A stretch of 64,000 nt of DNA, taken from NCBI GenBank assembly GCA_964016885.1, contig OZ024741.1, positions 71,052,001 through 71,116,000 on the forward strand, written 5' to 3'. Every line of letters begins with the position of its first letter. The first letter of the stretch is position 1. Below the pieces are notes generated by a model, which searched no databases, was not told where the DNA came from, and saw nothing but the letters and a program-made list of their open reading frames with translations. Positions 2,626 through 33,168 of this stretch are shown piece by piece. The translations under genes were made by a program, and so were the position numbers. The stretch comes from Eledone cirrhosa (lineage: Eukaryota).

Positions 2626-2650
2626 CTATTTGTAAAACTGTTATATATTG

Positions 2651-2715
2651 TATTTTGTCTGATGAAGGCATACCATAATTTAATGTGGTATCCCTGAAAT
2701 ATGTATAATGAAATA
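2651..2715 (+). ncRNA. Type I hammerhead ribozyme in the inverted PLE terminal repeat
   Basis: TATTTTGT-CTGATGA-AGGCATACCA-(10 nt loop)-TGGTATCCCT-GAAA-TATGT-ATA-ATGAAATA: conserved core, stem I, stem II, minimal stem III, AUA cleavage triplet. Confidence 0.8.
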
Positions 2716-2856
2716 AATATGGTTTTATAAATATAGTTTCCATTTATTAATATCGTATACCTACTCCAAAAACTTGTCGAGTGCTTTATATCAGTTATAA
2801 AAATATTTACTTGTTGTATCCCAACAACTTTAAATAGAACTTTTGCATATATATAT

Positions 2857-3050
2857 ATCATCATCGTTTAATGTTCATTTTCCACACTAGCACGAGTCAG
2901 ATGAATTGTCCCCTTGTGAGATAAGTCAGATTAGGTGACCATTTCTTGCTCATACAGAACTGTTTCTGATTTTGTTTCTACAGCTGGATGCCCTTCTTAA
3001 TGCCAACCATATTTACAGTATGGGTTGAGTGCTTTGTATTGTGGCACCAA
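2857..3050 (-). mobile_element. Degenerate RTE/SINE 3'-tail fragment
   Basis: catcatcgtttaa...ctacagctggatgcccttcttaatgccaacc resembles the RTE tails at 47318 and 55241. Confidence 0.6.
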
Positions 3051-3079
3051 AATGATCAACTGACAGGTTAGATTGGGTA

Positions 3080-3400
3080 CCATGATGACAACAATGATTA
3101 TGACAACAATCACCACAACAACGATGACAATAACAAAAATGATGCTGACAATGAGGACAATAACAACGATAATGACAATAATGACAATGACAACAATGAT
3201 GACAATGATGATAATACCAGTGATGACGACAATGATGATGATGACAACAATGATGACAGTGATGACAATGATGGTAATACCAGTGATGACAACAATAACA
3301 ACGACCATGATGATAATGATGACAACAACGATGATAATGATAAAAATAACATCAACAACAATAATTACACTGATGACAAGGATTACAACAACAATGATGG
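3080..3400. repeat. Imperfect (GAT/GAC/ACA)n trinucleotide microsatellite
   Basis: atgacaacaatgatgaca... pattern; source of the Met/Thr and Ile/Val ORFs. Confidence 0.9.
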
Positions 3401-4249
3401 GAGCAGCAATGAAGGTGGTAAAAGAAGAATGAATGGAAAAAAATAATAAAGACAGAAAAGAATCTAAACATGAGGAAAATTTTGAAGAGGAAGAAGAAAT
3501 GGAAAAAGAAAAAAAAGAATGAAAAAAACAATCAATAAACACCAAATAGGAACATAAATAAATGAAAGATTTGAGAAACAAACAACAAAGAACAAACAAA
3601 CAAACAAACAAATGTTCTTGAAATTATATCAAAGAATTTTTAAAAAACAAAGTTGTTTTTGAAAAAATATAAATATGAAATACATCTATAATTAGAAATT
3701 CAAAGTGAACTTCAAAACAATAGAGAGTTTGAAAGTGTTACTCTAAGACTGAAGCAATTCCTTGTTAAAAGTTCTGGAAGTAATGAGCACAAGGGTGTGG
3801 TGCCAAACAACACTCATATGGAGATCATAACAGAAAATATTTGGAATCAAGCAAATATGGTAACAATTTCAGAGATTTTTGTGGTGATGGTGGTGGTGGG
3901 TTTCACTGTCTCCGTGAGATTGAATTCTGGCTTGTTTTTATGCTAACATGGGTTGTAAACTCAAGATGGACCTTAAACCCAACATTAGTTGTAAACTTAA
4001 CATGGCTTGTAAAACCAAATCCCATGTCAAAACCAAACATGAGTCATAAACCACCATGAGTCATAAACGAAAAATGGGGCCAAAATGAAACATGAGTCAT
4101 AAACCCAATATAGGTCATAAATGTAACATGGTTCTCAAATCTAACATGGGTCATAATCCATGGATTCAAAACCAAACATGGGTCTTAAACCTGATATAAG
4201 TTATACAAATAACATGAATCATTAACACAACATGGGACCTAAATATAGC

Positions 4250-5737
4250 ATTCATCATAAACCTAATATGGTTCCTAAAGACAACATTCATCATAAACCT
4301 AACATGGTTCCTAAAGACAACATACATCATAAACCTAACATGGTTCCTAAAGACAACATACATCATAAACCTAATATGGTTCCTAAAGACAACATACATC
4401 ATAAACCTAATATGATTCCTCAAGACAACATACATCATAAACCTAATATGGTTCCTAAAGACAACATACATCATAAACCTAATATGGTTCCTAAAGACAA
4501 CATACATCATAAACCTAATATGGTTCCTAAAGACAACATACATCATAAACCTAATATGATTCCTAAACACAACATACATCATAAACCTAATATGATTCCT
4601 CAAGACAACATACATCATAAACCTAATATGATTCCTCAAGACAACACACATCATAAACCTAATATGGTTCCTAAAGACAACACACATCATAAACCTAATA
4701 TGGTTCCTAAAGACAACATACATCATAAACCTAATATGATTCCTAAAAACAACATACATCATAAACCTAATATGATTCCTCAAGACAACATACATCATAA
4801 ACCTAATATGATTCCTCAAGACAACATACATCATAAACCTAATATGGTTCCTAAAGACAACATTCATCATAAACCTAACATGGTTCCTAAAGACAACATT
4901 CATCATAAACCTAACATGGTTCCTAAAGACAACATTCATCATAAACCTAATATGGTTCCTAAAGACAACATTCATCATAAACCTAATATGATTCCTAAAG
5001 ACAACATACATCATAAACCTAATATGGTTCCTAAAGACAACATACATCATAAACCTAATATGGTTCCTAAAGACAACATTCATCATAAACCTAATATGGT
5101 TCCTAAAGACAACATTCATCATAAACCTAATATGGTTCCTAAAGACAACATTCATCATAAACCTAATATGGTTCCTAAAGACAACATTCATCATAAACCT
5201 AATATGATTCCTAAAGACAACATACATCATAAACCTAATATGGTTCCTAAAGACAACATACATCATAAACCTAATATGGTTCCTAAAGACAACATTCATC
5301 ATAAACCTAATATGGTTCCTAAAGACAACATTCATCATAAACCTAATATGGTTCCTAAAGACAACATACATCATAAACCTAATATGGTTCCTAAAGACAA
5401 CATACATCATAAACCTAATATGGTTCCTAAAGACAACATACATCATAAACCTAATATGGTTCCTAAAGACAACATACATCATAAACCTAATATGGTTCCT
5501 AAAGACAACATACATCATAAACCTAATATGGTTCCTAAAGACAACATTCATCATAAACCTAATATGGTTCCTAAAGACAACATTCATCATAAACCTAATA
5601 TGGTTCCTAAAGACAACATTCATCATAAACCTAATATGGTTCCTAAAGACAACATACATCATAAACCTAATATGGTTCCTAAAGACAACATACATCATAA
5701 ACCTAATATGGTTCCTAAAGACAACATACATCATAAG
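4250..5737. repeat. 36-bp minisatellite, ~41 copies, with degenerate 18-bp units on its flanks (~3940-4250)
   Basis: Unit CATCATAAACCTAATATGGTTCCTAAAGACAACAT(A/T), highly homogeneous. Confidence 0.95.
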
Positions 5738-6289
5738 CCCAACAGTGGGTCATAAACACAATAGGAGTCATAAAAAAGGTCAGTCATTAACCAACAAGAA
5801 GACTCAAATTTTAGGCTGATAGACAAAGCAATCATTGAAAATAAAATGGAAAGGGGATCAATATTTAACCTTTTTAATACAAATGTGACAGAACCATTTC
5901 TGCTCATATCTACTTCTCAAATGAAATGACTATGTGTTTGTTGAACCTCTGTTTGTTCTAGTGACAAGTGTCTCAGTTGTTTGAACAATGGAACAGCTCA
6001 TGAAATAAACATGAACCTTTTATGTATTACCCAGAGAAAGTCAGAGTAACACAGTGTATAATAAGGTTAGCCTCTTGAATTACAGGTAGAGCCCATTTGA
6101 CAGACTTCCAAACAGTTTCTTGTGACCCAATTTCACTTACAAGGCATAAATCAACCCAAAGATATTGTAAGTGCCACTTGTCCAAGAAAAGGTAGGAGAG
6201 GAAAGGAAGGAAACTGGACCTGCCAGTTTTGTGGGCTTCTTTGGCTTTAGGTAGTCTCAAGTTGCAGATAGCTAGATTGTGATTAGTTG

Positions 6290-31744: not shown

Positions 31745-31868
31745 TGAATATAGACATAGAATATTCGAAAATATTCTGTATGTTTATAATAAACATTTTG
31801 AAGACCTAATCGCTATAGAATAGAAAACGTCACGTATTACAATTAGATTCTAGATAAAAGCAAGGGAA

Positions 31869-31911
31869 GTAATCTACGCGTTTCATTCTTGTTAAAAATC
31901 TTCAGGACTAC
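31869..31911 (-). ncRNA. Minimal hammerhead (one stem II mismatch/wobble)
   Basis: Minus strand GTAGTC-CTGAAGA-T-TTTT-AACA-AGAA-T-GAAAC-GC-GTA-GATTAC. Confidence 0.8.
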
Positions 31912-32178
31912 ATATCCAGTGCTTTTATCGAGAATGACACAGCTAGAGACTTATAGAATACTTAGCTGTGTACAGGAACTGGTTTGAAAGAGCGGTTGCC
32001 GGTCCGGCAGAAATTAGAAATTGGAATAAATGCTCTGAAATAGCGATATATATGTGAATATAGACATAGAATATTCGAAAATATTCTGTATGTTTATAAT
32101 AAACATTTTGAAGACCTAATCGCTATAGAATAGAATACGTCACGTATTACAATTAGATTCTCGATAAAAGCAAGGGAA

Positions 32179-32221
32179 GTAATCTACGCGTTTCATTATT
32201 GTTAGAAATCTTCAGGACTAC
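32179..32221 (-). ncRNA. Minimal hammerhead (one stem II mismatch)
   Basis: Minus strand GTAGTC-CTGAAGA-T-TTCT-AACA-ATAA-T-GAAAC-GC-GTA-GATTAC. Confidence 0.75.
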
Positions 32222-32654
32222 ATATCCAGTGCTTTTATCGAGAATGACACAGCTAGAGACTTATAGAATACTTAGCTGTGTACAGGAACTGGTTTGAAAG
32301 AGCGGTTGCCGGTCCGGCAGAAATTAGAAATTGGAATAAATGCTCTGAAATAGCGATATATATGTGAATATAGACATAGAATATTCGAAAAATTGCTTTT
32401 ATCGAGAATCTAATTGTAATACGTGACGTATTCTATTCTATAGCGATTAGGTCTTCAAAATGTTTATTATAAACATACAGAATATTTTCGAATATTCTAT
32501 GTCTATATTCACATATATATCGCTATTTCAGAGCATTTATTCCAATTTCTAATTTCTGCCGGACCGGCAACCGCTCTTTCAAACCAGTTCCTGTACACAG
32601 CTAAGTATTCTATAAGTCTCTAGCTGTGTCATTCTCGATAAAAGCACTGGATAT

Positions 32655-32697
32655 GTAGTCCTGATGATTTCTAACAAGAATGAAACGCGTAGATTAC
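32655..32697 (+). ncRNA. Minimal type I hammerhead ribozyme
   Basis: GTAGTC-CTGATGA-T-TTCT-AACA-AGAA-T-GAAAC-GC-GTA-GATTAC. Confidence 0.88.
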
Positions 32698-32964
32698 TTC
32701 CCTTGCTTTTATCGAGAATCTAATTGTAATACGTGACGTATTCTATTCTATAGCGATTAGGTCTTCAAAATGTTTATTATAAACATACAGAATATTTTCG
32801 AATATTCTATGTCTATATTCACATATATATCGCTATTTCAGAGCATTTATTCCAATTTCTAATTTCTGCCGGACCGGCAACCGCTCTTTCAAACCAGTTC
32901 CTGTACACAGCTAAGTATTCTATAAGTCTCTAGCTGTGTCATTCTCGATAAAAGCACTGGATAT

Positions 32965-33007
32965 GTAGTCCTGAAGATTTCTAACAAGAATGAAACGCGT
33001 AGATTAC
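32965..33007 (+). ncRNA. Minimal type I hammerhead ribozyme
   Basis: GTAGTC-CTGAAGA-T-TTCT-AACA-AGAA-T-GAAAC-GC-GTA-GATTAC. Confidence 0.88.
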
Positions 33008-33168
33008 TTCCCTTGCTTTTATCGAGAATCTAATTGTAATACGTGACGTATTCTATTCTATAGCGATTAGGTCTTCAAAATGTTTATTATAAACATACAG
33101 AATATTTTCGAATATTCTATGTCTATATTCACATATATATCGCTATTTCAGAGCATTTATTCCAATTT

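Follow-up and report, generated by a model that had tools for sequence, protein, structure and literature searches.

The 64,000-nucleotide stretch of the Eledone cirrhosa genome analysed here (C2:71052001-71116000 of a 3.0-Gb assembly; hereafter the window, to which positions refer unless otherwise marked, L-numbers denoting genomic loci fetched from the same assembly) contains five insertions that consist of two oppositely oriented pieces of one element joined head-to-head. They belong to three non-coding repeat families, A and B with hammerhead motifs and C with a candidate hammerhead, and to a Penelope-like element (PLE) placed in the Hydra clade; copies of a second PLE lie beside them. Self-comparison of the window recovered all five inverted structures at the positions that a first-pass annotation, made from the sequence alone, had assigned to them, and in every one the outward-pointing strand is the hammerhead-sense strand. 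This head-to-head, both-tails-out architecture is real and genome-wide, and is not an assembly fold-back. A, B, C and the two PLEs obey one rule: a two-armed insertion has one end at a short site and one end at a long site. The inverted structure is a PLE footprint; its interest lies in its occurrence on non-coding hammerhead repeats, in a form that allows mechanisms to be told apart.

Family B (310-nt unit) was located by a 29-base pattern, which has 14,634 exact matches; a DNA search with the B unit returned nothing, the unit included, probably on account of overly common words in it. The first 100 matches formed 16 clusters, with minus-then-plus order in 10 and the reverse order in none, and 12 of the 16 fetched clusters were two-armed. 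An end-specific pattern gave 715 short ends, long-end counts being inflated by overlapping matches. On C1 0-130.75 Mb, the stretch for which both end lists are complete (65 long ends), 30 of the 36 short ends pair within 10 kb with an opposite-strand long end, tails-out, and no like-with-like (short-short or long-long) tails-out pair was found. Two arms no more than 60 nt apart were present at 48 of 57 B loci examined, 23 of these 48 having been selected for being paired and 25 not; in each of the 48, one arm ends at the short site and the other at the long site, about 35 nt apart, with both 3' ends outward. For flanks, arm lengths, breakpoint offsets, microhomology and private substitutions the set of 48 includes L143 in place of L121; TA repeats flank 43 of these insertions on both sides, 4 on one side and 1 on neither. 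Genome-wide enrichment of the both-tails-out structure, as implied by the first-pass annotation, is supported, and its description of the window B copy, both 3' ends of which run outward into TA, is confirmed.

In 45 of the 48 loci the two B arms share one haplotype, where 22% identical pairs would be expected, and arm-to-arm mismatches amount to 3 in 820 polymorphic-site comparisons, against 12.5% in 5,000 permutations. The arms are otherwise independent: the long-end arm is the longer one in 23 of 48 loci, inner-breakpoint offsets are uniform (Kolmogorov-Smirnov p 0.64; below 30 nt in 1 of 48), and unit-private substitutions were seen in both arms in 1 case of 30. Some arms run to 19-25 or more identical units. 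No two of the 48 loci have the same pair of junction coordinates, and each has one main inversion; therefore donor junctions are not recopied. Microhomology of at least 2 nt was found at 19 of 33 direct junctions (18% expected), and 15 junctions have inserted bases. Five loci were flagged for target duplication, two of them in periodic flanks; the informative duplications are those of L135 (11 bp, outside a microsatellite and bracketing the entire insertion), L126 (9 bp) and L147 (11 bp).

The other families follow the same rule. In family A, whose short and long ends are about 63 nt apart, at least 9 clean short-plus-long insertions were found in 20 loci chosen by their short end, and none was cleanly like-with-like; the remaining loci were one-armed, cut off or unresolved. 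Exact-pattern pairing gave partners for only 4 of 15 long A ends, owing to differences between A subfamilies in the long-end sequence. For C, with ends 83 nt apart and a tandem unit of 547-551 nt elsewhere in the genome, 25 distinct loci, obtained with a query that favoured long ends, comprised 14 clean short-plus-long insertions, 5 ambiguous and 6 one-armed. Hydra 3' ends fall at two sites 85-90 nt apart, with one arm per site in all nine insertions in which both ends are visible. The second PLE gave 14 short ends, 17 long ends 39 nt away and one other (32 ends at 30 loci), and combined short and long in both insertions with both ends visible.

In the window, the 18478-18947 palindrome, annotated as a possible fifth case, is a family C insertion with TA on both sides. 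Its junction holds a palindromic hexamer three times, the native unit having it twice. The inverted segments of both Hydra copies end in TA as first described, and each is the 3' end of its own element. Copy 1 extends 1.27 kb upstream of the window to a short end and TA, and its junction has 6 nt of microhomology. Retrozyme A had been said to run into TA at both ends, which holds for the right arm; the left TA stretch (27301-27324) is the internal (TA)n spacer of the unit, abuts the second PLE and is no standard family end.

Families A and B (the latter in each full unit), an A-like element (A', at 22300) and the two Hydra pseudo-long terminal repeats (pLTRs) carry hammerhead core motifs, each with a stem I of 6-8 bp. 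The motif of A and B comprises the core, a 6-bp stem I, a 4-bp stem II and a palindromic stem III; a candidate hammerhead in C shows the core boxes and a stem I of 7 bp, and its stem II is atypical in being interrupted by about 100 nt. In an Rfam scan of the window nothing reached the gathering score, these motifs included; in E-value matching at four loci, the 150 listed of 336 matches were dismissed as TA-microsatellite noise. A search for other families with the A/B-type hammerhead found none. A, B and C have the inverted 5'-truncated arm and one-ended tail of PLE-mobilised elements. Judged by motif and not by Rfam score, A and B also resemble non-LTR (long terminal repeat) retrozymes, in that they are tandem and non-coding and every unit contains a type I hammerhead.

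The window PLE had been called Naiad-like, an assignment that did not hold. Naiads have a GIY-YIG endonuclease N-terminal to the reverse transcriptase (RT), a DKA motif and no canonical hammerhead; PMC8557442 gives the Hydra clade a C-terminal GIY-YIG without CCHH, a CxCx5C linker, DKT and an N-terminal RWK. By domain order and motifs, the window PLE is assigned to the Hydra clade, since its endonuclease is C-terminal with DKT and CxCx5C and without CCHH; it also has a hammerhead core in the pLTR and resembles that clade in its (TA)n target, its inverted 5'-truncated arm and a tail at one end only (PMC8557442). Full-length copies are ordered pLTR, ATG, an open reading frame (ORF) of 732-745 aa, a long 3' untranslated region (UTR) and pLTR. 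DKT was present in all four that were read; the N-terminal motif was RWR in three and RSR in one, not literal RWK. In the linker CNCRNKSNC, which precedes GIY-YIG, C601, C603 and C609 do not vary across an alignment of 95 proteins. Among named proteins, the closest relatives of the window PLE come from an argonaut. A Hammerhead_1 search found a second Hydra family, Hydra-2, with a tail of 101-103 nt; the tails here (85-103 nt) differ from the 30-40 nt of PMC8557442, as do RWR and RSR from RWK. To place an autonomous driver inside the window was too strong: copy 1 starts at codon 43 and copy 2 at codon 262, so that they lack the first 42 and 261 codons, and intact Hydra ORFs were located outside the window.

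The second PLE, overlooked in the first-pass annotation, is classed as Neptune/Nematis-like, the two names being left joint, by its DKG motif, zinc-finger linker, C-terminal GIY-YIG with CCHH and 39-nt tail. A complete copy (L272) has an ORF of 878 aa, and the copies are very young, the best 150 matches all being at least 96% identical. Neither PLE ORF had a significant match to a Pfam family. The pLTR of the second PLE (27055-27110) contains a hammerhead-like element that is conserved across copies and whose first box is atypical.

In Hydra-1, Hydra-2 and C, each of the two start sites is followed after 6-9 nt by a hairpin of the form RCTC...TTGAGY. The regions scanned had it nowhere else, and neither A or B nor the second PLE has it. 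When C was shuffled 20,000 times, 0.075% of the shuffles had the hairpin at one site and none had it at both. As a forward test, the double-hairpin pattern was searched and had 800 matches, against 17 for a control pattern. Among 30 double-hairpin loci, a Hydra ORF follows in 19, with an identity of 38-96%; the other 11 are non-coding and mostly tandem, and include one family with a long-stem hammerhead core. Ends lie 6-9 nt before the hairpin in 13 of 19 measurable cases, with some overlap between loci. Other non-coding tandem families with the Hydra hairpin were noted at L311 and L334 (449-451 nt), L318 and L321-L323 (526-539 nt), L319 (510 nt) and L338 (565 nt). The hairpin, as a sequence feature, links Hydra to C and not to A or B. 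C is likely a Hydra passenger, because the Hydra hairpin is present at both of its sites.

B and the second PLE share a tail of 35-39 nt and small hairpins 10-12 nt behind both sites. The match in tail length is suggestive, and the likeness is only that because hairpins of this kind follow 10-13% of positions and the criterion was post hoc. B may ride on a Neptune/Nematis-like PLE or on a Naiad; Naiads with a (TA)n target are on record in Octopus (PMC8557442). The first-pass annotation proposed that a PLE mobilises at least two ribozyme-only families; sequence evidence links the window PLE with C, and not with retrozymes A or B.

Two fixed ends, one of each per insertion, a shared haplotype, independent arms, microhomology at the joints and short target duplications are observed in the sequence. 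They are probably explained by a PLE RT-endonuclease that nicks both strands of an AT-rich target and primes one cDNA per nick on a single RNA. We infer the following steps. The PLE protein would nick both target strands, and each nick would prime a cDNA on one shared RNA, which for the non-coding hammerhead repeats is likely an RNA circle. Two RT sites, as in a dimer, would start at the short and the long site, one each, and a small hairpin lying 6-12 nt to the 3' side on the RNA would set the position of each start. The RTs would then roll round the template over distances independent of each other, and joining of the 3' ends of the two cDNAs would give the head-to-head junction. A circular template is favoured because arms are long and homogeneous and junctions unique and single; the dimer is taken from the published model of PAc, the protein of a Poseidon PLE. 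More tentatively, a dimeric PLE might read one ribozyme-derived RNA circle from two hairpin-marked starts, one per nicked strand, the hairpin pair then serving as a clade-specific address by which protein-free RNA circles pick their driver; this fuller version may well not hold.

No circle would be needed if two-ended PLE priming took place on uncleaved linear multimers, or on two RNAs from one active donor locus. PAc works mainly on unprocessed RNA in vitro (PMC11167929), eight of nine Xenopus retrozyme dimers were uncleaved in vitro (10.64898/2026.07.22.740005), and a linear transcript of a homogeneous donor array would also give identical arms; the length of the B arms, and 48 junction pairs that are all different with one main inversion each, make this explanation unlikely. 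Self-priming, in which the first arm is copied back on itself as modelled in PMC3846280, appears improbable, even though it accounts for identical arm haplotypes, for the perfect palindrome at the window C junction and for Hydra L025, both arms of which are truncated at one position. Arm lengths and junction offsets in B are independent, either arm can be the longer and private substitutions are not mirrored, and snap-back is therefore disfavoured; in four Hydra insertions (L002, L016, L022 and copy 1) neither arm is contained in the other, and the C junction holds one hexamer beyond a simple fold-back. The first-pass annotation had offered priming on both strands or snap-back, and of these the former is the likely cause.

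The same annotation placed the priming on both strands at a self-complementary TA target. As a control we used an RTE-like long interspersed nuclear element (LINE) with 11,357 exact 3' ends. It ends in TA at 22 of 30 loci, and among 100 of its 3' ends there were 2 tails-out and 4 tails-in neighbour pairs. This LINE targets TA without short/long pairing, and therefore the TA target alone is not the cause; the B insertion at L135, although outside a microsatellite, is built in the same way. That all families crowd TA arrays, and that conversion could homogenise arms, would suit independent insertions into one TA run, or later recombination or gene conversion, as a source of palindromes; this is very improbable, as a TA run is missing from most junctions, like-with-like tails-out pairs were not found, RTE ends in TA pair in both orientations, and the 11-bp duplication surrounds the whole of L135. 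An assembly or read fold-back artefact can practically be dismissed. Among the listed contigs of the independent public run X1, none spans the window's own B junction, but 13 other B inversion junctions are present at depth 2.6-35; moreover, a fixed tail distinguishes the two ends, the flanks are unlike each other and the junctions lack symmetry.

Several observations weigh against priming of two cDNAs by a PLE on one RNA, or against its link to particular drivers. The hairpin motif was defined after the three families had been seen. A, B and C gave no significant alignment with either PLE (best E for A/B, 0.27). Cross-family junctions numbered four in 269 loci and showed no consistent partner. 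One-armed insertions exist, including 4 of the 16 fetched B clusters, one of these adjoining an assembly gap. Arms are more alike within than between loci in Hydra, C and A, weakly so in A and C: divergence within and between loci is 1.56 and 2.21% in A and 1.52 and 3.07% in C, older families with weaker arm-sharing, and a given arm's own partner is its best match in only 4 of 16 (A), 5 of 14 (C) and 7 of 13 (Hydra) pairs. In vitro, no difference in start site between the strands was seen with PAc, which used uncleaved RNA (PMC11167929); therefore neither a strict one-of-each rule nor a circle follows from PAc.

Inverted PLE arms with a one-sided tail are already known as general PLE features (PMC8557442), and PLE mobilisation of retrozymes has been proposed in print. 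The mechanism of inverted one-tailed insertion is treated as open in PMC8557442, which calls for an in vitro system, and self-priming has been proposed for PLE palindromes (PMC3846280). With PAc in vitro, both strands are cleaved and extended, synthesis starting at two internal sites, and the authors predict a dimer (PMC11167929); the insertions here share the AT-rich target and the two internal starts that define the tail, and differ in the strict one-of-each rule and in a non-autonomous template, neither of which is reported in the available text of that work. Adineta vaga Penelope palindromes (PMC3846280) likewise have head-to-head inverted pLTRs and an optional tail, with target duplications of 8-10 bp; they were read as self-priming on an antisense template, whereas the present data favour two cDNAs.

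Animal non-LTR retrozymes (PMC7229834; 10.64898/2026.07.22.740005) resemble A, B and C in several respects: the tandem units are non-coding, 310-550 nt long and low in GC, a type I hammerhead motif is present (a candidate in C), dispersed arrays are numerous and PLEs co-occur. They differ in that arrays here are head-to-head with two fixed ends, that cleavage and circles are putative here, and that A and B lack homology to the pLTRs examined; the word 'inverted' is not applied to arrays in the main texts of those two papers. The available text of PMC7761336 reports for animal retrozyme repeats no conserved motif identifying the mobilising enzyme. Non-autonomous Chlamys PLEs such as MRC1 are also non-coding passengers with multicopy head-to-tail insertions; they were assigned by 3' sequence similarity, and most lack canonical hammerheads (PMC8557442). 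In the Hydra description of PMC8557442 we found neither a double hairpin at the start sites nor non-coding passengers. The literature searched, which includes the available text of PMC4209133, PMC8490949, PMC11722881, PMC13282606 and 10.1101/2022.05.23.493040, yielded no account of inverted retrozyme arrays or of the short/long rule, the shared haplotype or the hairpin; unseen supplements and subscription journals could hold them.

Table 1. Arms and copies of the non-coding repeats and PLEs in the window.
Feature	Position	Strand	Description
Hydra copy 1, sense arm	1..2626	-	5'-truncated ORF 522-2626 from codon 43, RT then C-terminal GIY-YIG, 3' UTR
Hydra copy 1, inverted pLTR arm	2627..2846	+	hammerhead core from 2659; short site about 2756; long end 2846, then TA
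C, long-end arm	18478..18752	-	83-nt tail; Hydra-type hairpin 18527-18551; TA flank
C, short-end arm	18753..18945	+	TA flank
Hydra copy 2, inverted pLTR arm	19051..19390	-	hammerhead core 19238-19198; hairpin 19115-19134; long end at TA
Hydra copy 2, sense arm	19391..22199	+	5'-truncated ORF (to 20830) and 3' UTR, stops just short of pLTR
A-like element (A')	22200..22540	+	78% identical to A; hammerhead core 22300; ends at A short site
Second PLE, 3' fragment	22831..23115	+	long end
Second PLE	26071..27300	+	DKG, C-terminal GIY-YIG with CCHH; 5'-truncated; long end; 39-nt tail family
A, left arm	27325..27761	-	unit about 465 nt with internal TA run; hammerhead core 27510-27486; ends at internal TA run
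A, right arm	27767..27971	+	long end, then TA
B, short-end arm	31745..32391	-	2.1 units; ends at unit position 130, then TA
B, long-end arm	32393..33168	+	2.5 units; ends at unit position 167, then TA

The sense arm of Hydra copy 2 does not reach its own pLTR and is joined at 22199/22200 to A', which continues in sense from the Hydra 3' UTR. A recurrent Hydra/A' junction was rejected, as this is the sole instance in the genome. The other cross-family junctions, likewise without TA, run from Hydra to B (L131:1866-1874), from A to Hydra (L262:779-783) and from the second PLE to a C variant (L231:2520-2545); template switches or nested insertions with deletion could produce all four. In copy 1, the inverted pLTR and flank (2627-2867) give the truncated ORF an in-frame ATG and a stop-free leader, hence a chimeric 781-aa frame; it was rejected as fortuitous, the true start lying 42 codons upstream in full-length copies, and a stop-free antisense frame was present in 7 of 44 Hydra pLTR copies. 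At L029:1468-1500, four telomere-like TAACCC repeats stand exactly at the Hydra inversion junction, the element itself having one; it is the only such run among the loci checked, and RT slippage or telomerase healing could account for it.

An A array at L053-L055 (C5:14.82 Mb) has a three-unit period, as from a trimeric circle or a later duplication. At L143:1598-1871, a 272-nt GC-richer insert separates two B arms. Three runs of other organisms had one B contig each, 99-100% identical; horizontal transfer of B was rejected, since the RTE LINE is likewise present in these runs, at a low depth that indicates trace DNA. Elsewhere in the window, several RTE-like LINE copies with (ATC)n tails lie in TA arrays (36280-58404), one with an 894-aa open frame (43453-46134), and two subfamilies 77% alike stand head-to-head at 43481/43510. 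A 36-nt minisatellite of about 42 copies (4238-5736) is open on both strands, and a dispersed repeat of about 185 nt, like a short interspersed nuclear element, has many copies (10666-10852, 12325-12479, 13228-13422, 49800-51930, 61120-62820).

Family B provides hundreds of young insertions with comparable arms, which favour two cDNAs from one template. The hairpin is a concrete candidate cis-element, and the Hydra ORF and family C form a putative enzyme-RNA pair that can be named, so that the long-proposed hitch-hiking of retrozymes on PLE enzymes would become directly testable. If the hairpin pair does act as an address, drivers would be predictable from sequence, and arbitrary RNAs could be made addressable to a Hydra enzyme.

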